The notes: generated by a model not told the origin, from the sequence alone. A stretch of DNA of 64,000 bases from an uncultured archaeon (GCA_963799775.1 CAWCYD010000003.1:1376001-1440000), one strand, 5' to 3'; counted from the stretch's first letter, positions 9,777 to 46,218 are shown. Numbers and translations are program-made.

Positions 9777-9787
9777 GGGGCTCTGGT

Positions 9788-10250
9788 TTGACCCGAGACT
9801 TCTACGCGGTCCTGGGGGTGCCGAGGGCGGCTTCGATGGCCGAGATCAAGGAAGCCTTCAGGAGGCTCGCGTTGCAATACCACCCCGACAAGGACGCAGC
9901 GGAAGCCGAGAGGTTCAAGGAGATGAGCGAAGCCTATGCCGCCCTGTCGGACGCCGCGAAGAGGGCCCTGTACGATGCCCTTGGCCCCGACAAGTACGAT
10001 GACCCGCGTGAGGTTCATGTTTTACAGGCTGAACCAGGAAGCGGCCAACCGCGAGATGGAGAGGGAGTACGAAACGTCGAGGTCGGCGCAGAAGCACAGC
10101 GATGCGGAGGGCCTAGGATTTGTAATCTTCATCCTCCTCATCATGGATTTCCTGATTCCCTCGTGGGTCTTTGGGCCCTGGTTCTACGTGTTCAATGCCT
10201 TCCTCATCCTCGCCATAGCGGTCGGCGTCTACGATTCGTTGAAGCCCTGA
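9788..10250 (+). CDS. DnaJ (J-domain) protein with C-terminal TM helices (frameshift near 10010)
   Basis: DFYAVLGV...LQYHPDK...AYAALSD; second frame encodes hydrophobic [19 protein letters not shown]; paralog at 39144-39551. Confidence 0.8.
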
Positions 10251-10366
10251 TTACGCGCCTAGATTCCGAGAGAGCGATTTTTCGCCCGACCGGCCAGTCC
10301 CAAGGCCTCCGCCGGGTTGACATAAGCAGCCCTCTGTCTTCGATTTTATAAAGTTCTAAACTTTAA

Positions 10367-11656
10367 ATGGCTAGTCTGTTAAAAATTACTCGTATGCCAG
10401 AAGGCGAGAATGTATGGGAATGGTTCGGCTTCCGCAAGAACCCATACGATTTCCTCCCGCTAGCAGTAAACAAAGAAGACAGGACTCTGTTCGTTGGAAG
10501 GGAAGCAGAGCTTCCTAGGCTTGTCACGCCAATTGCAAGCGACTCCGGCGGGATTATTGTCGTCGAAGGGCGTGCGGGCGTAGGGAAAACAAGTTTCGTC
10601 AATGTAGTTCAGTACGACAGGTGGCAGGCCAAGTCATGTCTCCCGTCGTTTCAGGTACTCCAGGTCCAGCCAAATACTGACCCAATAGGCTTCATATTGT
10701 CTGCGTTTTCCACCTGCATAGGGCCCCTCGAGCTGTCGAAGTCCGGTGCGACCGACCACGACCCTGATTTGAAAGCTGGAAAGGCGATGGTAACACAGAT
10801 GTTGAATTCCGGATGGAGTTTCTCGGGCGGTCTCAATGTCGGCCTATTTGGCGGGCAGGCGGGAGCTGGGAAAGCAGCGGCGCCGTCTTCGCCACTCCTC
10901 CCTGCGATGCCAAGCATACTGAGCACAGCAGGGAAATGGTTCGACGCGGCAAGCCGGTTCGGCTGGGTGAAGTTCATCATACCGGTCAATAACCTCGACA
11001 TGCTGGATGAAGAATATGCCGTCGAGTTCATGAACGTGGTTCGCGATTACATGATAACCTTCGCTAAGAAAGGCGTCTGGTGGGTTCTGATCGCCAAGGA
11101 CGGATTTGTCCACACGCTGGAGAACAGAGCACATAGAGTCAGCGAAGTCCTGACCGGTCCACCTGTGAGGTTGAATCCGTTGTCGTTGGACGAGGTCAAA
11201 AAGGCGATAGATGTCCGCGTGAAAAAATATGGAAAGGAGGGTGTCAAAGCGCCGGCTCCGGACGAGATAGTGTCTTGGCTGTATAAATTGTCAGATGGAG
11301 AGGTGAGGGCAATCTTCAAGAAACTTACTGATATGATTTTCGAGTATCACGCGACCGTTCCCAGTGCGCAGACGATAACCGAAACCGCCGCAAGGAACAT
11401 CTTAGTGGGAGAAGCTAGGCGAAGAATTGAAGGGCTTGGCATACAGACAAACTGGATTAGAATTCTCGAAGGAACAGCAAAAAAGGGCATAGTCCACCAG
11501 GGAGGGTTCAAGGACTTCAATTTCAACAATCAGCCCGCATTTAGGAACGCGCTGGAGAAACTCTGCTACTTCGATTTGCTCAGACGTAAAGAGACTGGCA
11601 GGGAAGTGAAGTACTTGCCTACCGCAGATACAAACCTCGCATTTTCAAAGAGCTAG
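10367..11656 (+). CDS. AAA+/STAND-like P-loop ATPase with probable C-terminal wHTH
   Basis: FGFRKNPY, LFVGREAE, Walker A GRAGVGKTS, Walker B-like IIPVNNLD. Confidence 0.75.
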   Translation: MASLLKITRMPEGENVWEWFGFRKNPYDFLPLAVNKEDRTLFVGREAELPRLVTPIASDSGGIIVVEGRAGVGKTSFVNVVQYDRWQAKSCLPSFQVLQVQPNTDPIGFILSAFSTCIGPLELSKSGATDHDPDLKAGKAMVTQMLNSGWSFSGGLNVGLFGGQAGAGKAAAPSSPLLPAMPSILSTAGKWFDAASRFGWVKFIIPVNNLDMLDEEYAVEFMNVVRDYMITFAKKGVWWVLIAKDGFVHTLENRAHRVSEVLTGPPVRLNPLSLDEVKKAIDVRVKKYGKEGVKAPAPDEIVSWLYKLSDGEVRAIFKKLTDMIFEYHATVPSAQTITETAARNILVGEARRRIEGLGIQTNWIRILEGTAKKGIVHQGGFKDFNFNNQPAFRNALEKLCYFDLLRRKETGREVKYLPTADTNLAFSKS

Positions 11657-16185: not shown

Positions 16186-16220
16186 CGGAAGGGATGCAAT
16201 TAATTATTTAAGAGAATCCG
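16186..16220. repeat. motif A, recombination-site-like, copy 1
   Basis: cggaag-GGATGCAATTA-attatt-TAAGAGAATCC-g; the 11-bp arms match 8/11 as an inverted repeat; 2 bp from the partner stop codon. Confidence 0.8.
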
Positions 16221-16222
16221 CT

Positions 16223-18713: not shown

Positions 18714-18742
18714 GGGGCCGGAAGGGATGCAATTAATTATTT
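18714..18742. repeat. motif A copy 2 (right arm degenerate)
   Basis: ggggccggaagggatgcaattaattattt. Confidence 0.75.
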
Positions 18743-19049
18743 GAGACTTGAGCATAATTCTCGCCTGACATCATAGCCAATTCTGGTTGAGATGGCTTGC
18801 TAAGGGTCTCCTATCTCATGAGATTCATTGGTCAATGGCTCCCAAGAGTAGGACACTTCCTAGGAGGATGTTGCTCTCCGAGTCCTTCCTTATTGGGATT
18901 CTACGTCTAATCGAATTGATTCCTTGGCCAACAATACCCGCCAAGAAGAAGAGAGGCAGACGTATGTCTACCCGCATATCGTCATGCTCAGGTGCTTTAT
19001 AGTCAGGATCTGGATGAGGATTCCGAGCGACAATGCGCTCCATTCGTTC

Positions 19050-22330: not shown

Positions 22331-22386
22331 ACTTCCATAGACACCTCGAGAACAGGGTATATCTTGAAACACGCTGTGTTTATGAT

Positions 22387-22441
22387 AAATAGCTGATTTC
22401 ATCGTGTCCTTTCCCTCCCGCCTTCTCGCGAGCCCATAGCA
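22387..22441. repeat. motif C copy 1
   Basis: Pyrimidine tract followed by GCGAGCCCATAGCA. Confidence 0.75.
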
Positions 22442-23606: not shown

Positions 23607-23648
23607 GTGCGGTCGCCGGTTCTTAGACGCAATTGAGTTCAAATCCAC
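23607..23648. repeat. motif B / att-like repeat 1
   Basis: gtgcggtcgccggttcttagacgcaattgagttcaaatccac; the first 13 nt equal the tRNA-Gly 3' end. Confidence 0.85.
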
Positions 23649-23739
23649 GGGTACAAACCGTCAGTTACGGAAGCGGACAACGTTAGCGGACGAAGGCCGA
23701 AGCCAGTTCAGATTTTCTTCTAGCAAGTGCACTGCGTCT

Positions 23740-24141
23740 CTAAGTCTGATTCAAGGCCTCAGACACAGATAGGATTCTGATCTTCTTGAACCTCTTCAGG
23801 CGAAGGAGAGCCCTGTCGCCTGTGACAATGAAATCTGCATGTCCATCGTAAGCTGTGTTGAGAATCATGTTGTCGGAAGGATCACTCTCAATCGCTCGGA
23901 AATCTGACTCGACTCTCACCATGTCGCCAGACTGCATTAGTGCAAGAACGACTCTTTGAATCTCGTCTTCGCCGGTCTTGAATTTCGGTCTGCGCAGCAC
24001 AGTTTCGGTTTCTTTCAGGATGAATTCAGATATCACAAGAGAGAATCGGTTCTCTATTCCGCGGTCAAGCAATTCTCTAGGTTTGCCCTTAGAGATTGCA
24101 GCACTAACAATTACGTTGGTGTCGAGGACAACCCGATACAT
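23740..24141 (-). CDS. vapC: PIN-domain toxin (PIN_3-type VapC)
   Basis: VVLDTNVIVSA, DPSDNMILNTA and IVTGD motifs. Confidence 0.9.
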   Translation of the reverse strand: MYRVVLDTNVIVSAAISKGKPRELLDRGIENRFSLVISEFILKETETVLRRPKFKTGEDEIQRVVLALMQSGDMVRVESDFRAIESDPSDNMILNTAYDGHADFIVTGDRALLRLKRFKKIRILSVSEALNQT

Positions 24142-24145
24142 CCAA

Positions 24146-24427
24146 TCACTTGATTCTGTGCTTTTCTCTCCGAATTGTGGCTACCTCTTCTTGGACTTGT
24201 CTCTCTGAGAGTTTCAATCCCTTCTTATCCATCATCTTGAATATATCCTCCCACTCCCTCCTGACATCAGGGAGTTCGAGCTTCTTCATCACAACGGTAT
24301 CGCCTCTTCCAAAGACCAGGAATTTCGTTCCAGGCTTTAGCCTCAATGCGTTTCTTAGAGATTGGGGAATTACAACCTGTCCTTTCCCACTGATTGTGGT
24401 AATCTGCAGTTCTTCTTCCTGGGCCAT
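24146..24427 (-). CDS. vapB: AbrB/MazE-family antitoxin
   Basis: ISGKGQVVIPQSLRNALRLKPG; directly upstream of the PIN gene. Confidence 0.9.
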   Translation of the reverse strand: MAQEEELQITTISGKGQVVIPQSLRNALRLKPGTKFLVFGRGDTVVMKKLELPDVRREWEDIFKMMDKKGLKLSERQVQEEVATIRREKHRIK

Positions 24428-24525
24428 ACTTACTCGTATGAGCGCTTTACTTTCTTACTATTAATAGGTTTTCAGTCACCGTGTTCCAATGTCCTGATGA
24501 AGAGTGCGGTCTAGGAATTTGAACT

Positions 24526-24567
24526 GTGCGGTCGCCGGTTCTTAAACGCAATTGGGTTCAAATCCAC
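24526..24567. repeat. motif B / att-like repeat 2
   Basis: 42-bp direct repeat of 23607-23648 with 2 mismatches; preceded by a degenerate tRNA-end copy gtgcggtctaggaatttgaac (24504-24524). Confidence 0.85.
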
Positions 24568-27992: not shown

Positions 27993-28326
27993 GAAGTATC
28001 AACCGGGGGGCCATAGTTAAGAATACTCATATATTTATGAGTTGTCGATTGTGAATTCGCTATTTGCATTCTTTTGCAACAATATCATAGGAAATAGAAC
28101 TCAAACTTGAGGCTGCTCGCTCCAAGATGACCTGGGATAGGCAACAAGAAGTCCAAAAATTCCGAAGATGCGGATCAGTGGCTCGCAGCCAGGCTTCATG
28201 CGCCACCGCACTGTAGCATGGAACTCTTCTCCAAGGATGCAGCAAATCACTATAAGCCCTGCCGGAGGACTGCCTCTTCTTTGCACCGCTCATTGGAGTT
28301 TATCCCAAAAACAGTCTTTCTTGCTC

Positions 28327-28376
28327 AGAACAGCCCAATTCTCCCCCTTTCTTCCCCTCCCTTGCGAGCCCATAGC
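28327..28376. repeat. motif C copy 2
   Basis: agaacagcccaattctccccctttcttcccctcccttGCGAGCCCATAGC. Confidence 0.8.
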
Positions 28377-28434: not shown

Positions 28435-28473
28435 TGGGCTGGAAGGGATGCAATTAATTATTTAGGCGAATCC
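28435..28473. repeat. motif A copy 3
   Basis: tgggctggaag-ggatgcaatta-attatt-taggcgaatcc. Confidence 0.8.
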
Positions 28474-28590
28474 TCTTGCGTAGTAAACATTTTGCCCCTG
28501 TTCATTTCCGGCGCTTGAGGAACCGCTCTGCTTTCGCCGTCAGGGCATGGAATGTGAGGGAGCAAAGTGGAAATACTGGTTGCCGTACTC

Positions 28591-29441: not shown

Positions 29442-30638
29442 CTAGTATCCATCAGTAGCTTCGAGGGTTTCCGTAAAACTCTGGCTCGAAACGCTGCTAG
29501 GGCAAACGTTGACATGAATTGTGGTTCCCAAGCATGAAGTGGTTGTTGAGGTTAGGTCTGTGTAGTCGGCCGTATTCCAGTTATTGTCAATGCCGTAATA
29601 GTTGTTTGCCGAGTCATAGTAATAGCCATCCCAAGGGCTCAAGCCGTAGAAACCTGGCAGTGCTGTATTGCCCGGAGTTTCAGCCATGAATTGTGCGTAG
29701 TATGAGCCCCACGAAGAAAGGTCGAAACCCGATGGTGAGTAGCTAGAACAGCCTATCGAAAGAGTATAGTCATCCACAGTGACGTAGTATTCTGTACTGG
29801 ATGCCTTCTCGACTTCGCCGGCCACTTCGTCGCCGTATTGGGTGCCGCCACACACGTTCTGGTTAGCTGTTGGGTACCATTCATACCAATAGTTGGCCTT
29901 GTAGTTTGATGTGCAGGTAAATTTGCAGTAAGAATCAGTTCCAGTCTGCGCCAAATAACCGGCACCATTACAACCTGAAAGTGACTGATTTCCTCCCTGG
30001 CAATATGTTTCGCCAACCCAAAACGAGATGTCGCACTCGTAGTTATGAGAACTTTGGTCGCAGTTGTTCGTAGAGCCGTCGTATCCAGCACCATCGACAT
30101 ATGGTACGTCCCAGTATGCTCCGTTTTGTTCCACTTGATCGCCATTGGTGGGGGAGTACTCATACCCACTCCAGCCGTATTTGCCGGTAGGATTGAGGTT
30201 CCCGCTGTGAGTGAGACTCAAGTACACCATGCTGTTCAGGACACTCGCGAGGTTTGGACTGACTGCGACTTCGAGGGTGTATGATGATCCATTGAGTGCC
30301 CTCATGTCAAAGTCCACACTTACATCTTTCAGAGAAAGATTGCAGTTCGAGTTCCAAGAATAGCTGTAGAAGGTGCTATCATAATGGATCCCGGTATACA
30401 TAGAGTTGTATCCTGCCAAGACAGGAATGGCCGTTGCGTTAGCGGTTGCTTCGTTCAATGTTCCGTGTATCGCTTGAACCTGTTGGTCCAGCACACTTGG
30501 CGCACAAGTGGAGCTTGACAGTCCATTGGCTCCAGCCGGGAGTCCTCGGGACAAGAGAAGAAGAGCGAGAATGCCGAAGATGATGACAGCGTTCAAGTGA
30601 CGCCCTGTGCCGAGCACAGTGCGATTTGAGAAGAGCAA
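29442..30638 (-). CDS. secreted G1-family glutamic peptidase 4
   Basis: GWSGYEY, WDVP, FWVG, LAQTGT, WYEWYP, FMAETP, LPGF and NVCPSSV. Confidence 0.8.
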   Translation of the reverse strand: MLFSNRTVLGTGRHLNAVIIFGILALLLLSRGLPAGANGLSSSTCAPSVLDQQVQAIHGTLNEATANATAIPVLAGYNSMYTGIHYDSTFYSYSWNSNCNLSLKDVSVDFDMRALNGSSYTLEVAVSPNLASVLNSMVYLSLTHSGNLNPTGKYGWSGYEYSPTNGDQVEQNGAYWDVPYVDGAGYDGSTNNCDQSSHNYECDISFWVGETYCQGGNQSLSGCNGAGYLAQTGTDSYCKFTCTSNYKANYWYEWYPTANQNVCGGTQYGDEVAGEVEKASSTEYYVTVDDYTLSIGCSSYSPSGFDLSSWGSYYAQFMAETPGNTALPGFYGLSPWDGYYYDSANNYYGIDNNWNTADYTDLTSTTTSCLGTTIHVNVCPSSVSSQSFTETLEATDGY

Positions 30639-30818
30639 ACGTTCGGAGGATTCTTCTGGCTTGCCTAAATTTCTTATGAAGAAAGTCTATGTAGGCTTCT
30701 TCCGAGACGACAAAAATGGACGAGAAACTGGTTTCGCCCATTACCGTTGGCGCGGGTATACTGGTAGATTGACTGGATGCCCCAAAGGTATAGCCTCTAA
30801 TGATTCGGAATTCGTCAT

Positions 30819-30858
30819 AGAAGCCCAATTTCCCCTTCTCTCCCCCTCCTCGCGAGCC
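30819..30858. repeat. motif C copy 3 (truncated)
   Basis: agaagcccaatttccccttctctccccctcctcGCGAGCC. Confidence 0.7.
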
Positions 30859-30880: not shown

Positions 30881-30921
30881 GTGGGCCGGAAGGTATGCAA
30901 TTAATGTTTTAAGAGAATCCG
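30881..30921. repeat. motif A copy 4
   Basis: gtgggccggaag-gtatgcaatta-atgttt-taagagaatcc-g. Confidence 0.8.
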
Positions 30922-31035
30922 TCGGGCTGAGTTGCCATATTTACGGCGGGATTTAGTATTGCCGTGCTGCCATCACTCCATTACTACTCCCCGAGATTTT
31001 AATCCCACATGCTCTTTAAGCCGGTGAGGCGTCCA

Positions 31036-32158: not shown

Positions 32159-33355
32159 TTAACAGCTGTACTCGACAGCGAAGAAGCCGGTGCAACTGCT
32201 ACTGTTGTAATATTCTGTGAAAGTGCCATAGCTGTAACCCATCGGCTCGCTCATCGAAGATGTTGCTGTGTTCTGGTAACCACCATTGACCATTTCAGTA
32301 CCGTGCCCCCAATCACTAAGATAATTAGGGTACTGGTCGAACTTGGTTCCAGTTCCAGTTCCCATTTCGAGGTCCGTAAAAGTAACCGTCGAGAATTTTG
32401 CCAGTATATAGGTACCTTCTGTCCCTGCAGGCTCCTCGACCACGGTATCCGCATAGTGCGGGACAGCAGCTAAGCTATAATCATCAGTGCAGGCTTGATT
32501 ATTGTACTCGTTGATGACGTCCACGAAGTAGTCGCTTCCTGACATGCTAAATTGGGCATTAGATCCGGTCTGTGCGTAGATGTGATTCCCCGCGCTCACC
32601 GTTATCCCACAGTAATTGATACTCGGTTGCTGGCCAGCACCGTTATCACCGCCGTAGAAGTACTCGGTAAGGGCTGTATCTTGTGTTGTACCTGTGCTAG
32701 AAGTATAGTTCCCTTGAATCCCTCCCCGAACCAGTACATTGGTCCCTCGCCAAAGATAGTCTGTGCCAAAGTATGTGCCATTTTGTAACCCGGTCCATTC
32801 GTCAACCAGGCACTCGGTAACATTATCCTGTACCTTTGACCAGTAGCAGCCGCTCGAAATCGAAGAAAGTGTAGGAGTGCTCCAATATGCCGCTGAGTAA
32901 GTCACTGTTACGCTAGAAGGGGTAGAGGCATTGGCCACATAAAATCCTCCTTGATAATCTACATCGCTTACAGGTATGCCCGAGGCGGATGCATACCCGT
33001 GCCTTATGACATTGTATACCACTCCCGACGTGGGATTCACCGTCATTGTTAGAATGTATACATCTTGTCCATCCTTTTGAAGCAAGAAGTTCGCGGCGGC
33101 ATCGTGCCAAGTGACGGTGCAGTTTGTAGGATTAAGGTTCCAGTCGTTGTCGAAGCCCATAAATGTAGAGTTGTAGCCGGAGACCGCGTTCTGGTATTGG
33201 GGTGACTGAGCCGCAAAAGTCTGCACTGCTGCGAAACTGACGATGTTATTCTCGGATCCCATCTCAGACGCAAGCTTCAGCGGTGTGCATACGGCAAATG
33301 TGTCCGCCATAGCTGTTCCGGCAGTTAACAGCATCGCGATGGGAGAAATCACCAA
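32159..33355 (-). CDS. divergent G1-family peptidase 5 (true start possibly 33408 via frameshift)
   Basis: YQGG, YWSTP, EWTGL, LVRGG (R at the usual Q position), AGNHIYA, VVEEP and LAKFSTVTF. Confidence 0.65.
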   Translation of the reverse strand: MVISPIAMLLTAGTAMADTFAVCTPLKLASEMGSENNIVSFAAVQTFAAQSPQYQNAVSGYNSTFMGFDNDWNLNPTNCTVTWHDAAANFLLQKDGQDVYILTMTVNPTSGVVYNVIRHGYASASGIPVSDVDYQGGFYVANASTPSSVTVTYSAAYWSTPTLSSISSGCYWSKVQDNVTECLVDEWTGLQNGTYFGTDYLWRGTNVLVRGGIQGNYTSSTGTTQDTALTEYFYGGDNGAGQQPSINYCGITVSAGNHIYAQTGSNAQFSMSGSDYFVDVINEYNNQACTDDYSLAAVPHYADTVVEEPAGTEGTYILAKFSTVTFTDLEMGTGTGTKFDQYPNYLSDWGHGTEMVNGGYQNTATSSMSEPMGYSYGTFTEYYNSSSCTGFFAVEYSC

Positions 33356-33763
33356 CAGAAAGAGAAGCGGGATGCTGGCAGGCGGATGAAGGAACCGATG
33401 ACTTTCATGGATAACTCTTGCTGGAGACTCTTCTATTAAAAGTTAGTGTTTACACTGTAATACAGTACAATAATTCATGCGGAGTCGAAATATATTTCCT
33501 TCTAATCGTCTTCGACGATCGTCGTCACGCGAAATGATCCTTCAGCATAAACTCGGAATCAGGTGGTCGACCTACCTGCGGAGCTTTCTCTCGGGAGCTT
33601 ACGAGTTAGAGTCGCATGGACGACTCACCGTACACATCACAGGCACGTTCATAACAGGCTGAGCAGCCAGCAGCCAAGGAGACACTTTTGAATAACATCG
33701 GCCAAAGCCATGAAAAAAGATACCCCTCCAATGGGTGTATCCTGTTGTAGGCCTGTTTTCTTC

Positions 33764-33816
33764 AGAATAGCTCAATTTATCCCCTTTCCCTCCCCCCTTC
33801 ACGCGAGCCCATAGCA
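33764..33816. repeat. motif C copy 4
   Basis: agaatagctcaatttatcccctttccctccccccttcacGCGAGCCCATAGCA. Confidence 0.8.
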
Positions 33817-35699: not shown

Positions 35700-35999
35700 T
35701 TACTCTTCAATGGTAGACTTCTCTTCGTCTAGAAGGTCCTGGTATTTCTTTAGCCATCTCCTTCCTTTTGCAGTTATTGCGAATGTCTTCCGCCCTTCGC
35801 TTGAGGTAACGAGACGTATGTACCTGCCAGCCGCCAGCCTCGCCAAGTAGACTCCTTCAGCATCTCTATTCAGGTTGCAAGAAACCATTAGTCTGTGGGC
35901 CGTTGCGTTCCCCTTAACCAAGCATTGTAAAACGTCAGCTTGGATTTCTCTCCATACTCGCTTCTTGCGCTTCCCGGCCACCAACGCAATAATTGCCAA
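35700..35999 (-). CDS. winged-HTH regulator (HTH_45-like)
   Basis: KRVWREIQADVL...AHRLMVSCNLN...FAITAKG. Confidence 0.7.
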   Translation of the reverse strand: MAIIALVAGKRKKRVWREIQADVLQCLVKGNATAHRLMVSCNLNRDAEGVYLARLAAGRYIRLVTSSEGRKTFAITAKGRRWLKKYQDLLDEEKSTIEE

Positions 36000-36092
36000 A
36001 TACGTGAATCAAGGCGGCGATGTTTAAGGTTATTCCGTACGTTCACCCCAGCAACGCGACGGGTAGTCCGAGAAGCTACCTTCTTTTCGTCA

Positions 36093-36337
36093 AGAAGGCC
36101 CGATTTCTCTTCGTTTTCTCTCCCCCCTCTGGCGAGCCCATAGCAAGCAACACCCCTGCGAATCGAGCGAAGCGAGAATGAGCGGCCCCGCCCCGAAGCG
36201 GGGCGAAGGCGAAGTCCGAGCGGAGCGGCGAAGAGGGGGAAGCGAAGCGAGCGCAGCGAGCGGTGCCGAAGGCATCGCGGGGGGTGAATTCGCCGCGGGG
36301 CGAAGGACGAGCCTGAAGGGAGTTGCTTGCTATGGGC
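36093..36337. other. hairpin-rich origin-like element (full-length motif C)
   Basis: Perfect 16-bp IR GCCCATAGCAAGCAAC (36136-36151 and 36322-36337) encloses small hairpins and GCGAAGCGAG repeats. Confidence 0.65.
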
Positions 36338-36359
36338 GAGCCATGAGCTGGCGCCCACG

Positions 36360-38285
36360 TCAGCGTTGAGGCGTCCCTGCCGGTCCTTTGAGGAACTCCG
36401 CGAGCGTTGTCACCGTAACCCTGGGACTCTTCAGAGAGCTGTATCTGCCGCTCGCCGCCAAGTCCGAGTTTGGAACGACGACGAAGAAGGGTTTGGTAGA
36501 ACTGAGTCTTGAGATGCGCTCCTCAAGGTCGCTCGTCCTCGTCTTCAGCCCCGTCTCGATCTCGAAGTACGCGCTCTCCGTCTCGACATCGGGCAGGCTC
36601 TGCCCCGGGTCTGCAATGCTGAGAACCTGGTCGCTGTTCTCCCGCAGCCTATCGACGAGCTGCCTTACCATGTACTTGTGAAGGTTGCTGACCTTCTCGT
36701 CCCCGCCCTTTGGGAAGTACAGGACGACCGTTCCTCCAGGTTCCGTGCCGTCGTACTTCATCCGCTGAAGCTCATCAGCGTTGACCAGCCTCTCTAGGGC
36801 GTCTCTGACCTTCAGTTTCGCGGAGTCCTTGTCCACTCTCCCGTCCTTGCTGAGCTGGCTTGCAAGGGCAGACACCCAGACGACGCCTTCCTTGGCCAGC
36901 GCTTGCTTGACCGCTTTATCGTAGTCCAGGGCCTCGGCTTCCTGGGGGAGCGTTACCGCTAGAAGTTCGCACAAAGCGGTGGGTCGGGTCTCCTTCTCGC
37001 TTTCCGGAACGAATGTGTAGACCTCGATCTCTTTGTGAATAATCTTGGATTTTGCGTCCACGCAGTGGTGCTTCAAGAGCCCAGACACAGTCCAGGAGAG
37101 CATGGGGTCGATTGTCCTCAGCGCCTCAAGGTCTGACTTGGACGAGGTGTTGAAGACGAACTGGGTGGCGAACTGGTTCCTGATCCTGTCCTCGATGTCG
37201 GTGTAGTTCTGGGTAGAGGTCCAGAGGGCTCCTCGCGTCCTTATCTCCCTCGCCATCTCGACGAGGACCGAGTGGTACTTCTCGAAAGTGCCCCGGGTAA
37301 GGCGGTGCGCCTCGTCCACGTATAGGATAATCTTCTTCGCTCCCGTCGTCTGCCCTTGCATCTCGTTCCATATCCCTCTGAGGAGCAACTCCGCGTAGAA
37401 TGTCTTCGCGGGGTCCGATAATCTGGAGAAGTCGAGCACGACGTCCATGCCCATGCGGATGGCCTGGTTGATCGCGTCGGGCCTAGTCCCACCATCTTCA
37501 AGCCGAACAGATTTGGCCTGCGCCTGGATGAAGAAGAGCGCCGAGAGCTGCACCCTGTCCTTGGTCTCGCCTATCCTGCGTTCGGCGTTTCGGCTGAAGT
37601 CCTTCCAGGACGTGCATCCGTAAGCGAGTTCTTGGACGAGGGAAGGGATCTGGCTCGCCGTCACCCCGATGGTGCTGACCGGAAAGGCAATCGCGAAGGC
37701 GCTCACGAAGGCCTCGATGTCCGTGAACGGGTTGGGGACAAGCTCGCTTACGTCGGCGACAGGATACCCGATCTTGAGGTGCGTGTCGTTCACCTTGAAC
37801 GAGAAGACGACCTTCTGCTGCCCCTCGAACTTTCGGAGGAGGAGCCTGACCAAGCTGCTCTTCCCAGCCCCTGAGGCCCCGCTCGTGAAGACGTTCGCGT
37901 TCTCCTTGCCCTCGATCCTCTTGACCTCGTTTATCCACTTGAACCTGAATTCCTCGTTCCGGTATGGCTCCGACTGGGACTTTTCGCCGGAGTTCCTGTG
38001 GACGAGCCTGAGTATTCCGACGTGCCCTGGAGTCGGCTTCTGCTCCTCATGGTGAAGGGGGTTCCAATAAAGCAGGCCCGACGTTGACTGGTATCCTATC
38101 TCGTCTCTGTCTACCCCGTACTTGGCCTCAAGCCCCTTCCAGCGCTTCTCCTGTTCTTGCGCTCTCCTCGCCTCCTCGTCCTGTTCACGTTGCCATCTCC
38201 GCTGCTCCTCCTGCTCCTCTTCCCTCCTCTTCTTTGACTTCCAGAGGTTCAATTCGTAGACTCCTCTCTGAGAATCGTGAGCCAC
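36360..38285 (-). CDS. FtsK/HerA/VirB4-like ATPase fused to wHTH and a PD-(D/E)xK-like C-terminal domain
   Basis: Walker A GASGAGKS, Walker B LYVDEAHR, REIRTRG, TSTQ; C-terminal LHKYMV...LPDVET...YFEIETG. Confidence 0.8.
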   Translation of the reverse strand: MAHDSQRGVYELNLWKSKKRREEEQEEQRRWQREQDEEARRAQEQEKRWKGLEAKYGVDRDEIGYQSTSGLLYWNPLHHEEQKPTPGHVGILRLVHRNSGEKSQSEPYRNEEFRFKWINEVKRIEGKENANVFTSGASGAGKSSLVRLLLRKFEGQQKVVFSFKVNDTHLKIGYPVADVSELVPNPFTDIEAFVSAFAIAFPVSTIGVTASQIPSLVQELAYGCTSWKDFSRNAERRIGETKDRVQLSALFFIQAQAKSVRLEDGGTRPDAINQAIRMGMDVVLDFSRLSDPAKTFYAELLLRGIWNEMQGQTTGAKKIILYVDEAHRLTRGTFEKYHSVLVEMAREIRTRGALWTSTQNYTDIEDRIRNQFATQFVFNTSSKSDLEALRTIDPMLSWTVSGLLKHHCVDAKSKIIHKEIEVYTFVPESEKETRPTALCELLAVTLPQEAEALDYDKAVKQALAKEGVVWVSALASQLSKDGRVDKDSAKLKVRDALERLVNADELQRMKYDGTEPGGTVVLYFPKGGDEKVSNLHKYMVRQLVDRLRENSDQVLSIADPGQSLPDVETESAYFEIETGLKTRTSDLEERISRLSSTKPFFVVVPNSDLAASGRYSSLKSPRVTVTTLAEFLKGPAGTPQR

Positions 38286-38525: not shown

Positions 38526-39059
38526 TCAGTTGGGCTTTTGAAGCATAATTGAGAGAACTTCTCTCCTTCGCTGCCTGGCCATCCAAACAAACACGGAGAG
38601 GAAGAACGCCTCGATTGCCCCAGCTGAGACCGTGAGGACAAGGACCGTGAAGAGGTACGACGGGTACTGTGCGTAGGCAGGATATAGCGAAATGCCGATA
38701 ACCGCTCCGACAATCAGGCTTATCCCGACCATGATACCCATCTCGACCAGCCCCACGGCATTGAAGAAGTTCCCCAGAGCCCTCCTGCCTTTTTGAGTCA
38801 GCGCGTAGGAGTTGGCGTCCCTATCAGGCAGATTGTCTCCAAGCAATCTGATGTAACCATAGTTGAGAAGGGCGGGATACGCATAATTCGTGATCGTGTT
38901 CTCGGGGATTCCTAACTCCTTTCCCAGCTTCTCGGCGGACGATTCCCTGTTTCCTCTCTTCGAGTTATCGAGGTAGGCCAGGACCTTGATCCAATTCAGA
39001 GTGAGGTCTCCCATCCTCTCAACGCGAAACCGTCTCTTCAGAGATTCGAGTGCCATCAC
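38526..39059 (-). CDS. wHTH protein with two C-terminal TM helices
   Basis: LGKELGIPENTI...YALTQKGR plus hydrophobic segments. Confidence 0.7.
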   Translation of the reverse strand: MMALESLKRRFRVERMGDLTLNWIKVLAYLDNSKRGNRESSAEKLGKELGIPENTITNYAYPALLNYGYIRLLGDNLPDRDANSYALTQKGRRALGNFFNAVGLVEMGIMVGISLIVGAVIGISLYPAYAQYPSYLFTVLVLTVSAGAIEAFFLSVFVWMARQRRREVLSIMLQKPN

Positions 39060-39143: not shown

Positions 39144-39551
39144 CTAGAACCACGGGCCAAAGACCCACGTAGGGATTACGAAGTCTATCACGAGAAGGCC
39201 GAAGAGGATCACTATCATCGACTCGATGATGCCGGTCTGCTCAATCGACTTGGACGCCTCGTACTCCCGCTTTATCTCGCGCGCAGACACTTCGCGCTCG
39301 ACGTAGTATTGGAAGACCTCCCGAGGGTCGTCGTATTTGTCGGGGCCTAAAGCATCGTAAAGGGTCCTCTTCTCGGCGTCTGACAAGACGAGATAGGCCT
39401 GAGAGACTTCCTGGAACTTCTCCTCTGCATCCGGAGACTTGTTCCTGTCGGGGTGATACCTGACGGCCAGCCTCCTGTAGGCTTCCTTGATTGTTTCTCT
39501 CGATGCCGTCCTCGCAACACCAAGGACATCGTACAAGTCGTGCCTTTGCAT
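39144..39551 (-). CDS. DnaJ (J-domain) membrane protein (premature TAG relative to its paralog)
   Basis: DLYDVLGV...RYHPDRN; [14 protein letters not shown] and WVFGPWF are shared with 9788-10250. Confidence 0.8.
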
Positions 39552-39561
39552 GCTTTCGCCC

Positions 39562-40839
39562 TCAGAACGGCACCTTCACTATCGCCCCGCCGTCAGGGAG
39601 CGACGCCACGTACTCGTATCCCTGCCCTATGTAGGAACTGACCTCCTGCACCGGGATTACCTTCTGCCTGGAGCCGTTGCCCGTCATCATGCCGACCAGC
39701 CTCTGCCTCACAGTGTTCTGCAGCTCCTCGTCGGTCATCTCTTCGAGGTTCATCCTCTCGACCTCCTCCTTCTTGAATCCCGCGACAACGAGAAACTGCT
39801 CCCGCAGCGCCTTCTTGATCTGCTCCTGGCTCGAAGAATCGGCTTTGGTGCTAGAAAGAAGGGACTCGCATCTCTTGTAGGCAGCACGCATCTCCTCTAT
39901 CATGTCCGGCGGTAGTCTGCCCTTGTTGGTCGAATACCTTGCTTCGATATCGCCTTTGTGCCCCATGAAGAACTGGCGCCACGGATGGGAGATGGATCCC
40001 TTCGACTCTGCGATGTCGAAGGCCGTGCCGCAGTAGGATCTCAGCACGTACGGCCTCCAGGTGAACCCTGCCTCCTTCATAGCGAGCTTGACCTCCCACG
40101 AGAGCTTCGTCGTCCGCAGGAAAGCGAGCTTGCTCCCCTCCCTCACATGGGTGATTACGGGGGTTTCTGCGTCCAGCTTCTCCCCACTCCTCATCCTTGC
40201 CTCGAAGTATTCCTTGAGGTACTGGCATCCTTCCTCAGGCAGGAACGAGAAGTACTGGTGCCGGGCCTTGCTGAGCGTCTTCCTCACCATCACGATGGTA
40301 GGAACCTTGGTGAACTCCACGGTACGCTTCTTGATTTCGAGCTCACGCAAATCGCCGAGCCTCAAGCCGTCAGTGCCCAAGTAATTAGCGAGGCTCTCTG
40401 GTCTCAACCCCGAAAACGCCATGAACGCGGCAATCGTCCTCGCCCTCGGGTCGCAGTGCCTGAATATCTGGGCGAGCTGCTCCTTCGTCGGCACGACCTC
40501 GTCAACGTAATCCGAGGTGGGGAGCTTGATCTTCTTGGTTATCTCGAAGCCGTGGTGCCCCAGCCAAGACTTTATCGTCGTTAGGTTGTTCCTGGCCTGG
40601 GCGGGCTTCTCCCCCTTTGCAAGCGACCTGTCGACATAGTCCATGATGAAGTCGTCGAAGCCGTCAGGCGAGGCGCGCTTCTTCTCGATTATCTCCCTCG
40701 GGCCGAGCTCCGTCACAATGCAGAACCTACCCAACCGCCTGAGTCTCTCTTCCGCTGTGATGATGCTTCCCCTTGCGAGGTTGTCATACCATCTCTTGAC
40801 GTCCGGTTCATTCAGCAGGTGCTTGTGCCTCGGTTTCAT
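39562..40839 (-). CDS. tyrosine recombinase/site-specific integrase
   Basis: GLRPES (R), LSK (K), YVLRSY, FMGH and ARY (Y); starts 47 bp downstream of tRNA-Gly. Confidence 0.9.
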
Positions 40840-40885
40840 GCCCCAGCGAGGTAGGGCAACGAATGAATTTAAACTTAGTTAAAGG

Positions 40886-40977
40886 TGCGGTCGCCGGGAT
40901 TTGAACCCGGGCTACCAGCTTGGCAAGCCTACACGCCCATTGAGGCTTGATGTCCTACCAGGCTAGACAACGACCGC
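40886..40977 (-). tRNA. tRNA-Gly(GCC) with a ~19-nt intron in the anticodon stem (about 29/30)
   Basis: GCGGTCG TT GTCTAGCCTGGTAGGAC A TCA[AGCCTCAATGGGCGTGTAG]GC TT GCC AA GCTGG TAGC CCGGG TTCAAAT CCCGG CGACCGC A. Confidence 0.9.
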
Positions 40978-42928: not shown

Positions 42929-45199
42929 TCACAGACCTAGTCGCAGAAGCTTGTCGGGCGTTATCGGAAGCTCCCTGACCCTGATCCCTGTCGCGTTGTA
43001 GACGGCGTTCGCGATCGCCGCGGCGGCCCCCGTGATCCCGATCTCGCCAATCCCCCTTGCTCCCAGGGAGTTGAAGCGCGTGTCAGGCTTGTCGAGGAAC
43101 TTCACCTCGATGTGGGGCACGTCGCCGTTCACCGGGACCAGGTAGTCGGCGAGGTTCGAGTTCACCACCCTGCCGTGATGGGGGTCGTAGTGCGTTTCTT
43201 CCGTCAGCGCCATCCCAATGCCCCAGACGATGCCTCCGATGAACTGGCTCCGGCCGGTGATCGGGTTAAGGACCTTGCCCGTGTCGAAGACGCCGAGGAA
43301 ACGCGAGACCCTGACCTCCCCAAGGTCTTTGTCGACCCTCACTTCCGCGAATTGCGCCCCGAACGAGTGGAAAGAGAACTTGTCCTCCTCCTCGCCCGGG
43401 CTGGACCTCGCCTCCCCTTGGACGGAGGGGAGGTTGTGCCGCAACATGACGTGCGAGAGGGACCCCTGGCGACCTTGAGCCCTTTGCTACGAGGCTGCCG
43501 TCCTTCATTCGGATGTCTCCGAGCGGGACTCCGCGCATCTCCGCCGACTTGCCCGTCCTCGAGAGCTTCGCCAGCTTGTGGATGGCGTCTTGACAGGCCT
43601 CCTTCACAGCGGGCATGACGCTCGCGGTCGTGGTCGACCCTGCGGACCTTGGGGCGGGCGGGAGGTCGGAGTCGCCAAGCCCTACTCTCACTTTCCCGAT
43701 TGGCACACCTAGAGTCTCAGCCGCGACCTGGGCGGCGATGGTGTACGTCCCGGTGCCCAGGCCCTGGGACGCCGTAGAGACCACAACGCTACCGTCGGGG
43801 AAGACGGAGACCCGGGCGGAGGCCGAGAAGCGACCTGCGTGATAGACCGCGGTGGCCATCCCCATCCCGACGAGGCTGTTGCCATCCTGCACGGAGCGCG
43901 GCGTGGCTTTCCTCTCGCGCCAGCGGAAGGCCTTCGCCCCTATCTCGTAGCATTCGTCGAGGTGTTTTCCCGACCAGGGCTTCCTCTTCTGAGGGCTCCC
44001 CTCCGGGCGTAATTGACCATCCTGAGCTCTATGGGGTCCATCTCGAGCTCGCATGCCAGCTCGTCCATCGCAGACTCGAGCGCGAGGGTCCCGCTCGCCT
44101 CGCCTGGACCCCTCATGTAGGTCGGGGGGGCGATGTGGACGGGTACTGCCTTGTGCGAGATCCACATGTTGGGGGAAGCGTAGAGCATCGCGGTGACTGC
44201 CCCGGCGGGTTCGAAGAACTCCCCCACGAAGGTGGTCTGGCTTACGACGTCGTGCCCGGTCGCGACCAGTCTTCCGTCCTTCCTCGCGAGGAGCGAGAGC
44301 CTCTGCAGCGTGGATGCCCTGTGGCCCGTGGAGGAGAACAGGTACACTTCCGGCTGAGCATCAGCTTCACAGGCCTGCCGACGACCTTGGACGCCATCGC
44401 GGCGAGTATCGGATGGTGCCCCAAGCTGCCCTTGGAGCCGAAGCCGCCGCCGATGTAGTGCGAGACGACCCTGACGTTCTCCTTACCTATCCCGAAGACC
44501 TGGGAGAGGGTGTCCCTCGCGCTGACGACGGCCTGAGAGGAGTCGTAGACCGTGAGGTTCCTTCCCTGCCATGTGGCGGTCGACGCCGAGGTCTCCATGG
44601 GGTTGTGGTGCTCCACCGGGATGACGTAGGTTCATCTCGATGGAGACAGTGTCGGGCGACTTTGAGCCGAAGGCCTTTGCGCCCTTGCCTCTGGTTGTCT
44701 GCATCGGGACGTCAGTGTGGTTGTGACGGAGAGGAGACGAGGCTCTGAGGATGTCCTCGACCATGTCGAGAGACGGCTCCTTCTCCTCGTACTCTACTCG
44801 AAGGAGCGAGGCGGCGTAGGCTGCCTGCTCGAGCGTCTCCGCCACCACGACAGCGACGTGCTGACCCGCGTACTGGATGACGTTGTCCTGGAGAGGGAGC
44901 TTGGTCTCTATCGTGAGCGCGTAGGGGCTCTTCTCAGGGTTGTGCAGGCGAGGGCGGTTCTCGTGCGTGATTATCGAGAGGACGCCGTCCGCTCTGCCGG
45001 CCTCATCCTGGTCGATCTTCTTGATCTTTCCGTTGGCTATCGTGCTCTGCACGACGCACGCGTAGGCCACGTTCTCCAGGTCGATCTCCGCGGAGTAGTG
45101 CGCCCTGCCGGTGACCTTGGCTGGGCCGTCGATGCGCGGGATGGGCGCGCCTACAGGAGATCTGGCTTCGCCACGCCGCTCGACAAGGACTGTGCCCAC
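42929..45199 (-). CDS. xanthine dehydrogenase family molybdopterin-binding subunit (PaoC/YagR-like), several frameshifts
   Basis: RIDGPAKVTG, HNPME, GGGFGSK, MRGPG, GLGTG and GIGEIG spread over five ORFs. Confidence 0.85.
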
Positions 45200-45204
45200 G
45201 GCTT

Positions 45205-46218
45205 TCAGCTCCCCGACCCCGTCTTGCCACCCTGCGACGACGTGACGAGCAAGGCCCGCACCATGGCCCTCTTGCAAAGTTCGACCTTGAAGCCGTTGTC
45301 TTCATGGGGCCGGGCGTCCCTGAGAGCTATCTCTGCGGCGCCCCGAAACTGCGGCTCGGTAGCAGGCCCTCCGATGAGCGACTCTTCCGCCTCTCTTGCT
45401 CTCCAAGGGACGGTCCCGACGCCCCCGAGCGCGATCTTCGCCGCCCGGATGACCCCTTCGCGCACGTCCAGAGCCGATGCCACCGAGACGAGAGCGAAGT
45501 CGAACGAGGCTCTGTCCCTCACCTTGAGGTAGTGGGAGCTCGGAGGTGAGGGCGCCCTCATCTCTACCCCCGTGATGAGTTCGGATGGGAGAAGAGCGTT
45601 CTCGATGTGCGGGGTCTGGCCCGGAAGCTTGTAGAAGTCACCTATGGGGATGGACCGCTCCGCCCCGTCGACCGTCCTCGTCAACACGGTCGCGTCGAGG
45701 GCGGCCAGTGCGACGCAAAGGTCAGAAGGATGGGTCGCGATGCAGCTCTCGCTCGTCCCCAGGACCGCGTGGGCCCTGTTGAGACTCCCCATCGCGGAGC
45801 AACCCGAACCGGGAGACCGCTTGTTGCAGGCGAAGGAGGTGTCCCGGAAGTAGTAGCAGCGCGTGCGCTGGAGGAGGTTCCCGCCGATCGTGGCCATGTT
45901 CCTAAGCTGGTGCGAGGCGCCGGACTTGAGCGCCTGCGAGACGAGGGGGTAGCGTTCCTTGACCAGGGAGTCCTCGGCCACCACGCTGTTTCGCGCCATC
46001 GCCCCTATCCTCAGGCCCGAGTCCTGCCCGGGGATCGGCTCTATGCGATCCAGGGCGAGACGGCTGATGTCGATGAGGAGGGCAGGTTCCTCCACTCCGA
46101 GCTTCATCAGGTCGATCATCGACGTCCCTCCGGCGACGAAAGAGGCCCCAGCCTGGGTGTGGGCCGCATCCAGGGCCTGCTCTTCGCTCTCTGCACGGAG
46201 GTAGCGGAAGGGTTTCAT
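45205..46218 (-). CDS. xanthine dehydrogenase family FAD-binding subunit (PaoB/YagS-like)
   Basis: AGGT, RNMATIGGNLLQRTRCYYFRD, CNKR and CIATHPSD motifs. Confidence 0.9.
   Translation of the reverse strand: MKPFRYLRAESEEQALDAAHTQAGASFVAGGTSMIDLMKLGVEEPALLIDISRLALDRIEPIPGQDSGLRIGAMARNSVVAEDSLVKERYPLVSQALKSGASHQLRNMATIGGNLLQRTRCYYFRDTSFACNKRSPGSGCSAMGSLNRAHAVLGTSESCIATHPSDLCVALAALDATVLTRTVDGAERSIPIGDFYKLPGQTPHIENALLPSELITGVEMRAPSPPSSHYLKVRDRASFDFALVSVASALDVREGVIRAAKIALGGVGTVPWRAREAEESLIGGPATEPQFRGAAEIALRDARPHEDNGFKVELCKRAMVRALLVTSSQGGKTGSGS

Follow-up and report, generated by a model that had tools for sequence, protein, structure and literature searches.

A new structured element in the backbone of archaeal integrative plasmids, adjoining a gene for a HerA/VirB4-like ATPase with predicted winged-helix and nuclease-like domains

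Results

We have analysed a 64,000-nt stretch of DNA from an uncultured archaeon (GCA_963799775.1 CAWCYD010000003.1:1376001-1440000; hereafter the window, with positions counted from its first letter). Its minus strand carries a gene (36360..38285, -), defined by its open reading frame (ORF) and translation, for a 641-residue ATPase–winged helix-turn-helix (wHTH)–nuclease-like protein (P0001) and, in the 250 bases 3' of the stop codon, a conserved structured element (36122..36351, -). The element was delimited with RNAalifold on six copies and is matched with 219 bits by R1, a covariance model trained on six copies. It is a new structured plasmid element. No description of it turned up in non-exhaustive literature searches, and Rfam returned no match at gathering scores in the window, only chance-level ones (E at least 0.35) at 35900-36450 and in the Thermoplasmata locus L029 at 9700-10500.

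The RNAalifold consensus of the six copies is a fold of about 215 nt that is closed by a stem of 22 bp and contains two more long-range helices, an apical part that varies and a side hairpin. An earlier reading of the window from its sequence alone (the sequence-only reading) had pointed out an inverted repeat at this place, and it is borne out: the arms, at 36130-36155 and 36318-36343, are 26 nt each and 88% complementary, GCCCATAGCAAGCAAC being the perfect 16-nt core, with about 170 bp enclosed. On the strand of the gene, 36318..36343 (-) is the 5' arm of the closing stem and bears the inverted copy of a 13-mer, while 36130..36155 (-) is the 3' arm, whose outer 13 nt (36132-36144; GCTATGGGCTCGC on the strand of the gene) are also the start of the tail described below. 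The two hairpins named in that reading are present (CGCCCCG-AAG-CGGGGCG at 36189-36205 and TGCC-GAA-GGCA at 36264-36274), as are three copies of the GCGAAGCGAG-type repeat (repeat family D1), but all of them fall in the variable apical part and are shared only by the closest relative, L013. In place of these two, the conserved local hairpin is the side hairpin CCCCGC-N6-GCGGGG (36186..36203, -; helix 9), in which four of six pairs show compensatory changes. Two unpaired motifs were recognized in the alignments, m1 (AATTCACCCCC, 36280..36290, -), invariant there, and m2 (CTTCCCCCTCTTC, consensus CCCCCCTCTT, 36230..36242, -). As AATTCACCCC and CCCCCCTCTT they are nearly invariant and the same across both phyla in which the element occurs, Nitrososphaerota and Thermoplasmatota, between which the closing stem has a wholly different sequence with its complementarity kept. 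In the archaeon's own genome m1 is found only within the three elements, and in a Thermoplasmata genome four of its five copies lie inside the two elements present.

A total of 16 full-length matches to R1 were obtained in the 48 sources searched, nine of which are Thermoplasmata loci outside the training set (E 1e-11 to 1e-13). Matches occurred in 7 of 151 genomes of the order and in three of four Thermoplasmata genomes, the complete one having two elements and two copies, and the length of the element ranged from 164 to 272 nt. When the 16 sequences were aligned by fitting to R1, a procedure that favours the structure, 96.7% of cells were paired, as against 79.1% in shuffles and 40-46% in slid controls, and 34 of 62 pairs, including those of long-range helices 1, 3 and 5, showed compensatory changes, a number reached by 0 of 500 shuffles; an independent MAFFT/RNAalifold treatment of the six copies gave 17 of 62 compensatory pairs. 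The element thus has the compensatory helices beyond controls that characterize structured RNAs or single strands in general. In the window, the minus strand folds as RNA at -100.6 kcal/mol (z -5.2) and the plus strand folds as DNA with z -3.7, either fold beating 200 of 200 shuffles. The genome holds three copies for three integrase-bearing elements, and throughout the family there is one copy per intact element, nearly always in the same orientation as the integrase or ATPase gene upstream of it. In the Thermoplasmata elements and in the plasmid pPO1, an extra mini unit (short helix, m1, m2) lies about 100 nt upstream of the main element (L029 9880-9940, L030 11572-11620, L082 3716-3766), and the core motif is duplicated there. 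Two ORFs running across the element (35888-36358 and 36178-36369) were rejected as genes, since the indels between copies are not multiples of three. A metagenome search with the pattern TTCACCCC-N(0-30)-CCCCTCTT gave 120 stretches, which we regard as chance matches because none of the 80 fetched matches R1.

The sequence-only reading had linked the element to the ATPase and proposed looking for similar repeats downstream of ATPase homologues. These do follow the homologues in L013, L014, L007 and the second ATPase copy of the genome, but they are also present where there is no ATPase. The element stands directly 3' of the ATPase gene in the window, L013 and L054, and one small ORF intervenes in L014 and L007. 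In L053, L069 and L063 the integrase is followed directly by the element, with no ATPase (in L053, at C3:49209-49460, immediately after the integrase stop codon), in L072 and L070 integrase remnants precede it, and four genomes that are 88-90% complete (G118, G090, G097 and G104) have the element but no ATPase match. Among loci with 10 kb of sequence after the ATPase, it was found in 12 of the 15 that also bear the integrase (in one only further out) and in 0 of 8 whose ATPase stands without this integrase. In Nitrososphaerota the element abuts the 3' end of the ATPase or integrase gene; some loci have the block from the DnaJ gene to the ATPase and others lack it, its limits being exactly the integrase stop codon and the element. 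The Thermoplasmata copies are 5-15 kb away from the ATPase, within about 1 kb of non-coding sequence. Given its occurrence after integrases without an ATPase, its absence from the eight integrase-less loci and its distance from the ATPase in Thermoplasmata, a specific tie to the ATPase cannot be upheld; the element belongs to the plasmid backbone, not to the ATPase. The second ATPase copy (G000:C3:1344127-1345707; L054 8109-10025) is 42% identical and has an in-frame TAG; a full element follows it and an integrase lies upstream. In L023, downstream of an ATPase homologue of 58-59% identity, there is only a remnant (9268-9400; nhmmer E 0.0055), in which a 3' arm resembling GGGGTGTCGGCTG and a portion of the tail survive.

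The outer 13-mer of the closing stem, GCGAGCCCATAGC, has exact copies at 22428, 28364, 33803 and 36132. If two mismatches are allowed at most, there are eight matches in the window as against 2.0 expected, a number reached by 0 of 100 shuffles, and the whole 2.47-Mb genome contains five exact copies and none of the reversed control. The copies are alike over about 100 nt leftward on the plus strand, and the likeness ends at the 13-mer. The shared breakpoint claimed for the left-arm copies is therefore real, in that the outer 13-mer and its tail of about 100 nt stand alone at 22440, 28376 and 33815, and the copy said to break off a few bases earlier corresponds to a fifth, degenerate tail detected with nhmmer (30784..30858, -; E 2.3e-5), just downstream of a TATA-like repeat at 30888-30923. 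The tail joined to the full element (36058..36144, -; nhmmer E 4.9e-17, alignments) comprises the 13-mer, the G-rich run AGAGGGGGGAGAG and a weak terminal hairpin, and is followed by a wHTH gene. Of the stand-alone tails, the one at 33716..33815 (-; E 7e-23) heads an operon encoding secreted proteins of 398 and 223 residues, that at 28282..28376 (-; E 8.5e-17) has a TATA-like 36-nt repeat 65 nt upstream (28441-28476), and that at 22337..22440 (-; E 3.6e-19) lies in the adjoining tandem element remnant; the tail profile found one further copy elsewhere in the genome, outside the window. The breakpoint common to the tails falls where the sequence-conserved part of the stem ends; it need not be a nick site. 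The 36-nt A/T-rich repeat just mentioned (GGAAGGGATGCAATTAATTATTTA...) occurs at 16187-16222, 18720-18755, 28441-28476 and 30888-30923, resembles on its minus strand an archaeal BRE/TATA promoter (B recognition element and TATA box), and lies 25-65 nt upstream of two tail copies. We rejected the tails as attachment sites of tandem integrations, as the attachment repeat is a tRNA 3' end located elsewhere. Nothing was drawn from contigs of three DNA sequencing runs, which were short pieces with low-support joints (23648>28441, 36341>36535) and indistinguishable from relatives.

The gene upstream of the element encodes a protein whose true start may lie some codons inward, since a database copy (P0002) has 630 residues and matches over 98% of the length. 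There are 52 homologues in a database clustered at 90% identity, and 205 clusters at 50% identity; homologue names come from Nitrososphaerota, Thermoplasmata and Micrarchaeota assemblies, and the gene is sporadic, being present in 5 of 201 genomes of the order. AlphaFold2 models, built with alignments of 68 and 82 homologues, have a predicted local distance difference test score (pLDDT) of 91.4 for the whole chain and 92.7 for residues 440-641. According to the model, the chain starts with a charged long helix (residues 4-56; 38118..38276, -), preceded by a transmembrane helix in some aligned homologues. It is followed by a HerA/VirB4-like P-loop ATPase core (residues 89-445; 36951..38021, -), identified by Foldseek and by conserved motifs, the Walker A sequence GASGAGKS (37857-37880, -) and a DEAHR motif (~37302-37319, -). 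Walker A, as GxSGxGKS, and DEAHR are invariant in the ATPase alignment, as are residues G136, G139, G141, K142, D324 and E325. Foldseek placed HerA (9x1m and 4d2i, E ~3e-11) at the top for this part, together with DndH-C and VirB4 (4ag5), with E from 2.5e-11 to 2e-10 and probability 1.00, and in a viral structure library HerA-like and conjugal-transfer proteins ranked first, packaging ATPases being weaker (1e-7 or worse). At the level of the fold, the protein belongs to the HerA/VirB4 branch of the FtsK-HerA superfamily. By sequence, AAA_22 is the only Pfam model that reaches its cut-off (27.3 as against 27 bits); FtsK_SpoIIIE (12.8 against 24 bits), HerA_C (13.7 against 22) and DUF87 (11.7 against 23.2) stayed below their gathering cut-offs, and the best NCBIfam VirB4/TraC match (30.4 bits against a cut-off of 590) places the protein outside that family.

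The remainder of the chain comprises a wHTH (residues 455-525; 36711..36923, -; pLDDT 92.7), for which many wHTH regulators were recovered with Z 8-9.3 over model residues 12-92, and a PD-(D/E)xK-like domain (residues 534-633; 36387..36686, -). The PD...EIETG-type C-terminus that had been noticed is indeed encoded (the ORF ends ...PDVETESAYFEIETGLK...), and belongs to the motif H536...G561xxxxD566...E575-x-E577-T-G-x-K581. The modelled topology of this domain is helix-strand-strand-strand-helix-strand (H534-549, E554-557, E567-569, E573-576, H585-593, E600-604), and residues H536, D566, E575, E577, T578, G579 and K581 are conserved in at least 90% of sequences (D566, E575, E577 and K581 in the 68-sequence alignment). 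Structural comparison of residues 522-641 with VIA-align (the sequence-only reading had proposed Foldseek for the C-terminal domain) recovered a PD-(D/E)xK-like fold, with BstEII as the best match (Z 9.3 over 109 residues), followed by the Can2 nuclease domain (Z 8.0) and VRR_NUC (Z 7.7). The core topology, the acidic residues and the lysine of the PD-(D/E)xK fold can thus all be recognized, at fold level and in a predicted model; protein-atlas neighbours bearing Pfam families were PD-(D/E)xK-type nucleases too, although their scores (0.81-0.84) make them leads only. The combination of ATPase, winged helix and nuclease-like domain in one chain, as the sequence-only reading had it, is consistent with these confident models and structural matches, though with middling Z scores and no nuclease family found by sequence the support is at fold level only.

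The proposed likeness to Replic_Relax did not hold, as no Pfam match to it was found for the whole protein (E up to 1) or for 26 C-terminal domains (E up to 10). In the protein atlas, Replic_Relax (PF13814) was a rank-30 lead only, borne by 12% of the members of one cluster. Weak ACT matches in 13 of the 26 nuclease-like domains (best E 6.1e-5) were taken as compositional, and searches of PDB sequences with the whole protein and with a nuclease-domain profile gave nothing meaningful. We did not file the protein as part of a defence system, PADLOC giving only a weak match to the mad8 ATPase (E 6.9e-9), nor as a packaging terminase: a PHROG 'terminase large subunit' match covers 74 core residues, but the viral fold search favours HerA/VirB4 and no capsid gene was found. 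In the predicted models, a hexameric-translocase fold of the HerA/VirB4 type is joined in one chain with a winged helix and a PD-(D/E)xK-like domain. The protein would thus be a HerA/VirB4 motor with a nuclease-like domain fused on, from an uncharacterised family of which no description turned up in non-exhaustive literature searches, and the ATPase may serve as the mobile element's own DNA-handling motor.

The tRNA 3' end repeated at 24526-24567 and 23607-23648 marks the region from 24.5 to 41.0 kb as an integrated, plasmid-like element of about 16.4 kb, with remnants of other elements after it. Integration took place at an intron-bearing tRNA gene (40884..40977, -; ARAGORN, sequence), of which a 3'-end copy, CCGGCGACCGCAC, forms the far attachment site (24526..24567, -; repeat family D3); L013 contains the same fragment. 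Next to the tRNA gene lies a gene for a 425-residue tyrosine integrase (39562..40839, -; PHROG phrog_1 integrase, E 1.9e-11), which is 56% identical to the integrase of L053 and has a relative in L030 that matches Phage_integrase; homologues were found in 23 loci, 22 of them also with the ATPase. Between integrase and ATPase are encoded a DnaJ-domain protein with a C-terminal membrane helix (39144..39551, -; Pfam DnaJ, E 5.5e-27, and hydropathy) and a small protein with two membrane helices predicted from hydropathy (38526..39059, -), which has a homologue in L013; in Thermoplasmata a four-helix membrane protein takes the equivalent place upstream of the ATPase. Downstream of the tail, a small wHTH protein (35700..35999, -) matches HTH_45 in Pfam (E 5e-9) and, below the cut-off, the NCBIfam Sso10a_fam (E 1.1e-6), and also has a homologue in L013. 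The gene order is accordingly integrase, DnaJ, membrane protein, ATPase, structured element, wHTH gene and secreted-protein operons, the cargo consisting mostly of secreted or membrane-anchored proteins without family matches. Of 32 neighbouring ORFs, none was assigned to the VirB6, VirD4 or pilin families. The Thermoplasmata backbone adds ParA, a serine resolvase, a gene of the Orc1/Cdc6 family and methylases, and in the complete Thermoplasmata genome the element lies between a tRNA-Ala gene and a 21-nt repeat of the 3' end of that tRNA. These elements are a family of integrative plasmids. A collection of viral contigs scanned with the ATPase alignment yielded no relative.

The sole plasmid-database match of the ATPase is pPO1 of Picrophilus oshimae, a free 7.6-kb plasmid with Cdc6, methylase, ATPase and resolvase genes. 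Its ATPase homologue is 31.9% identical over 78% of the query, and its Cdc6, methylase and resolvase genes match those of the integrated Thermoplasmata elements; unlike these, pPO1 has no annotated tyrosine integrase. Two short units (helix, m1, m2) with G-rich runs lie in its region IG2 (E 3.8e-6 and 1.6e-4), differing from the full element in that they lack the long closing stem and are located upstream, not downstream, of the ATPase gene. The publication on pPO1 lists ORF1 as an 'FtsK-related protein' and describes IG2 as deviant in G+C, free of Tn5 insertions and possibly structured, while the AT-rich and repeat-rich IG1 upstream of cdc6 is the proposed oriC (PMC3177234).

Discussion

The element is a backbone feature common to integrative plasmids of Thermoplasmatota and Nitrososphaerota and to pPO1, and its long-range compensatory helices suggest a single strand that folds on itself, whether RNA or single-stranded DNA. 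Among the functions considered, we tentatively favour, with a confidence that stays slightly below even, a structured RNA transcribed from the plasmid backbone, ahead of a site for replication or transfer. An RNA is favoured because the strand of the upstream gene is shared in 15 of 16 R1 matches (L069 and L072 also have the element on that strand), because the 5' arm starts about 20 nt after the upstream stop codon in the window and 5 nt after it in L053, and because an A/T-rich TATA-like box lies ~17-25 nt upstream of the first unit in seven of seven distinct Thermoplasmata contexts. The conserved unpaired motifs, almost confined to these elements, also point to RNA, and the element is kept in every backbone variant, whether this has an integrase without the ATPase or, as in pPO1, an ATPase without an annotated tyrosine integrase. 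An island of high G+C in the A+T-rich genome of a thermophile is a known hallmark of structural RNA genes, and the R1 matches in IG2 have 44-66% G+C within a plasmid of 30.5% G+C. The location of the pPO1 units in the G+C-deviant IG2, the proposed origin being IG1 and single-stranded DNA intermediates not having been detected, further favours an RNA (PMC3177234).

We infer transcription, strand and in vivo pairing of the element as follows. In Nitrososphaerota the RNA would be read through from the integrase/ATPase operon, and in Thermoplasmata it would be produced from its own promoter. Its unpaired C-rich motifs AAUUCACCCC and CCCCCCUCUU could pair with G-rich stretches of its own 3' tail, the G-rich start of the tail being the reverse complement of m2 followed by that of m1; no more than 6 of 200 shuffles attain the energy of the duplex between m2 and the tail in any of the six Nitrososphaerota copies or in pPO1. 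In the present genome the same motifs might also pair with the stand-alone tails heading cargo operons, so that the element could act as a riboregulator in cis and in trans, or as a processing signal. The shared breakpoint would then be the 5' edge of a leader module of about 100 nt and not a nick site. Phages may provide a comparison in their repeated leader modules and in RNA sites downstream of int, such as lambda nut and sib and the T4-type promoter-stem-loop repeats. Here, likewise, a module of about 100 nt occurs in one orientation at several operon heads, and a structured element lies just downstream of the integrase, although there is no similarity in sequence or structure and the archaeal element is far larger than sib or nut.

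Several observations weigh against an RNA. The gene's strand has an RNAalifold energy of -77.6 kcal/mol, the opposite strand one of -88.6; a count of wobble pairs (42 G-U as against 5 A-C) was rejected as evidence for the strand, since it is biased by the structure having been defined on the gene's strand, while the opposite strand folds at lower energy. A search for sequencing runs listed three DNA runs of one soil study and no RNA run. Complementarity between m2 and the tail does not exceed that of shuffles in three of three integrated Thermoplasmata elements (z -0.8 to -1.8), and in most copies m1 is weak in this respect. Stand-alone tails are absent from Thermoplasmata, where each locus has the 3' arm once, which would make any regulation in trans lineage-specific. 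In L012 (3110-3277), a locus of the same genus, the element follows directly after the ATPase stop codon in the opposite orientation and without a tail. The TATA-like boxes could serve the divergent neighbour gene in the commonest context, and 5' rapid amplification of cDNA ends in pPO1 mapped starts only for ORFs, which leaves it silent on a transcript of IG2 (PMC3177234). Finally, a DNA origin or transfer site would account just as well for the single copy per replicon, the retention in minimal derivatives and the position within the largest non-coding region.

The last of these points leads to a vegetative replication site, rather unlikely in our judgement, in which the origin would consist, wholly or in part, of the folded region with C-rich motifs and inverted G-rich copies, acting either as double-stranded initiator repeats or as a folded single strand or primer transcript. 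There is one copy per element, kept even in minimal elements without a recognisable replication protein such as L053, and the tail bears reverse complements of m2 and m1 in tandem. The available part of one account describes archaeal origins as repeat-bearing intergenic regions beside orc1/cdc6, with inverted origin recognition box (ORB) repeats and, in halophiles, G-strings (PMC3528665). The Thermoplasmata copy does lie in a ~1-kb non-coding region with A/T-rich stretches, which in L029 and L031 is just downstream of an Orc1/Cdc6-family gene (TIGR02928 E 7e-29, below cut-off; PDB 2v1u and 2qby). However, in L030 and G201 restriction-modification genes separate the orc1 gene from the element, and no Orc1/Cdc6 is detectable in the Nitrososphaerota elements, that of the window included, even though m1 and m2 are the same across the phyla. 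The motif is also absent from the host chromosome outside the elements and is therefore probably not the host's ORB; compensatory changes in arms 100-250 nt apart are not expected of a double-stranded protein-binding origin; and in pPO1 the units occupy IG2, opposite the proposed oriC in IG1 (PMC3177234).

Decidedly improbable, in turn, is the function put forward in the sequence-only reading, an origin of transfer (oriT) or double-strand origin (dso) at which the fused protein, acting as coupling protein and relaxase, would bind, nick at the edge of the 13-mer and pump the DNA. What stands of that proposal is the predicted domain architecture, which fits, and a conserved element within the same mobile family; what does not is the likeness to Replic_Relax and the tie to the ATPase. 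Both phyla have a gene for a small membrane protein upstream of the ATPase, the five tail copies have a sharp common 5' boundary, the DnaJ-to-ATPase block exactly fills the space from the integrase stop codon to the other arm, and a folded single strand would agree with the covariation. MOBC relaxases, such as TraX of pAD1, and Replic_Relax proteins use a PD-(D/E)xK-type fold, related to restriction enzymes, for plasmid DNA processing, as far as the available part of PMC8152469 goes; the wHTH and PD-(D/E)xK layout is alike, but here the nuclease-like fold is a prediction and neither the protein nor its 26 C-terminal domains match Replic_Relax by sequence. A new type of relaxase is nevertheless conceivable, because in the accessible portion of PMC6563490 relaxase candidates were not detected in thaumarchaeal integrative and conjugative elements and typical relaxases are absent from Sulfolobus conjugative plasmids. 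The adjacency of element and ATPase in the window, L013 and L054 recalls Streptomyces TraB and the nearby clt (PMC3429521, in the part available), and one translocase could likewise recognise a cis site on its own element, the candidate site adjoining the gene in Nitrososphaerota. In contrast to clt, the site here would be a multi-helix fold, not 8-bp direct repeats, and site and ATPase each occur alone: the element without the ATPase in L053, L069 and L063 and in G118, G090, G097 and G104, the ATPase without the element in all eight integrase-less loci with a 10-kb flank, the two being 5-15 kb apart in Thermoplasmata. Other type IV secretion genes, which conjugation systems have, were not found, VirB6, VirD4 and pilins being missing from the window's element, and the breakpoint coincides with the point at which sequence conservation of the stem ends. 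The failure to detect single-stranded DNA intermediates of pPO1 argues against a rolling-circle dso there (PMC3177234).

A bolder proposal, which we consider very unlikely, would see in the element a single-strand recombination or processing site where the integrase or the ATPase-linked nuclease cuts and rejoins at the 13-mer edges, making it an archaeal cassette-capture platform, integron-like but built from different parts; such a platform would explain why whole modules, including the DnaJ-to-ATPase block, lie exactly between arm and neighbour. Only a slim chance is given to the more specific notion of a folded recombination site whose inverted 13-mers are the crossover points of a recombinase, modules being gained or lost at the arms and the tails being leftover half-sites. 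Tyrosine recombinases do act on folded single strands, as in integron attC and CTX phage attP, and the element directly follows a tyrosine integrase in three loci and integrase remnants in L072 and L070. Its presence tracks the integrase and not the ATPase (12 of 15 as against 0 of 8 loci), the breakpoints at both 13-mers are sharp and common, one copy is inverted, and in L013 a stand-alone tail lies 70 nt from the attachment fragment. Nonetheless, there is only one full site per element, the tails are ~100 nt conserved on one side rather than short cores and are missing from Thermoplasmata, the integrase attaches at the tRNA 3' end, on the other side of its gene, pPO1 has the units but no annotated tyrosine integrase, and the link to the integrase may be one of shared descent only. 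An attC site is an imperfect palindrome of 57-141 nt ending every cassette, with conserved 7-nt cores and an IntI-type integrase alongside. The element falls outside that class, having 164-272 nt and one full palindrome per element, while the other cassette heads carry a one-sided tail of 100 nt. Relaxases resembling tyrosine recombinases exist, according to the available part of PMC8152469, and count in favour of such a site. As for a selfish insertion of the type of a miniature inverted-repeat transposable element, landed beside the ATPase by chance and bounded by terminal inverted repeats and a duplicated 8-bp target (GGCTCGCC on both sides), the inverted repeats do have the direct repeat GGCGAGCC on their flanks (36131 and 36335; D8), but the notion is far-fetched with only three copies in 2.47 Mb, each inside an integrase-bearing element, which sets it apart from that class, with two-phylum conservation, compensatory internal helices and invariant unpaired motifs, and with stand-alone tails that include 6 nt of the inverted repeat and are thus not empty target sites.

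With regard to the protein, a close comparison is with pairs of HerA and a nuclease, those with Sir2 or DUF4297 belonging to defence systems, in which a translocase is coupled to a nuclease and with which the ATPase fold is common (HerA-NurA 9x1m, HerA 4d2i, Sir2-HerA and DUF4297-HerA were top in Foldseek). It differs from HerA-NurA, HerA-Sir2 and HerA-DUF4297 in that the winged helix and the nuclease-like domain are predicted to be fused to the ATPase C-terminus in one chain, with no such partner, in that its HerA sequence scores are below the cut-offs, and in that its gene is found in integrative plasmids beside an integrase. VirB4 (4ag5) is likewise among the top folds, and the NCBIfam matches to VirB4/TraC are weak, all scores being far below the family cut-offs. 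Compact as it is, a predicted motor fused to a winged helix and a restriction-enzyme-like domain would be a candidate for a role in DNA export, DNA processing or defence among archaeal mobile elements.

Relaxase candidates, transfer origins and plasmid-control RNAs are not reported for thaumarchaeal elements in the available part of PMC6563490. If the element is an RNA, as we tentatively favour, it may be among the few structured non-coding RNA families tied to archaeal plasmids, other such families not having been searched for; if it is a DNA site, it would be a candidate for the cis site that is still missing for the transfer or replication of archaeal plasmids. A usable covariance model, clear invariant motifs and a plasmid from a cultivable host make its function directly testable in Picrophilus oshimae.

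Other features of the window and of related loci deserve a brief mention. Between the two tRNA 3'-end attachment fragments (23607-24567) lies a PIN_3-domain gene (23740-24141, -), and relatives of a small ORF beside it (24146-24427, -) adjoin relatives of the PIN gene in another locus; together the two resemble a miniature integrated unit of 0.9 kb. The two 398-residue proteins of the cargo (29442-30638 and 32159-33355) are rich in Asn, Ser, Thr and Tyr and are distant paralogues, with 26% identity over 113 residues; one of them has a predicted N-terminal membrane helix, and relatives follow a stand-alone tail in L013. At 42929-45277, the large subunit of a molybdenum hydroxylase (MoCoBD_2 twice and Ald_Xan_dh_C) is split over three overlapping ORFs, which points to frameshifts or assembly errors. 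In L053 (13799-15679), a NuoB-like (Oxidored_q6) gene is broken by an intein with a LAGLIDADG homing-endonuclease domain.

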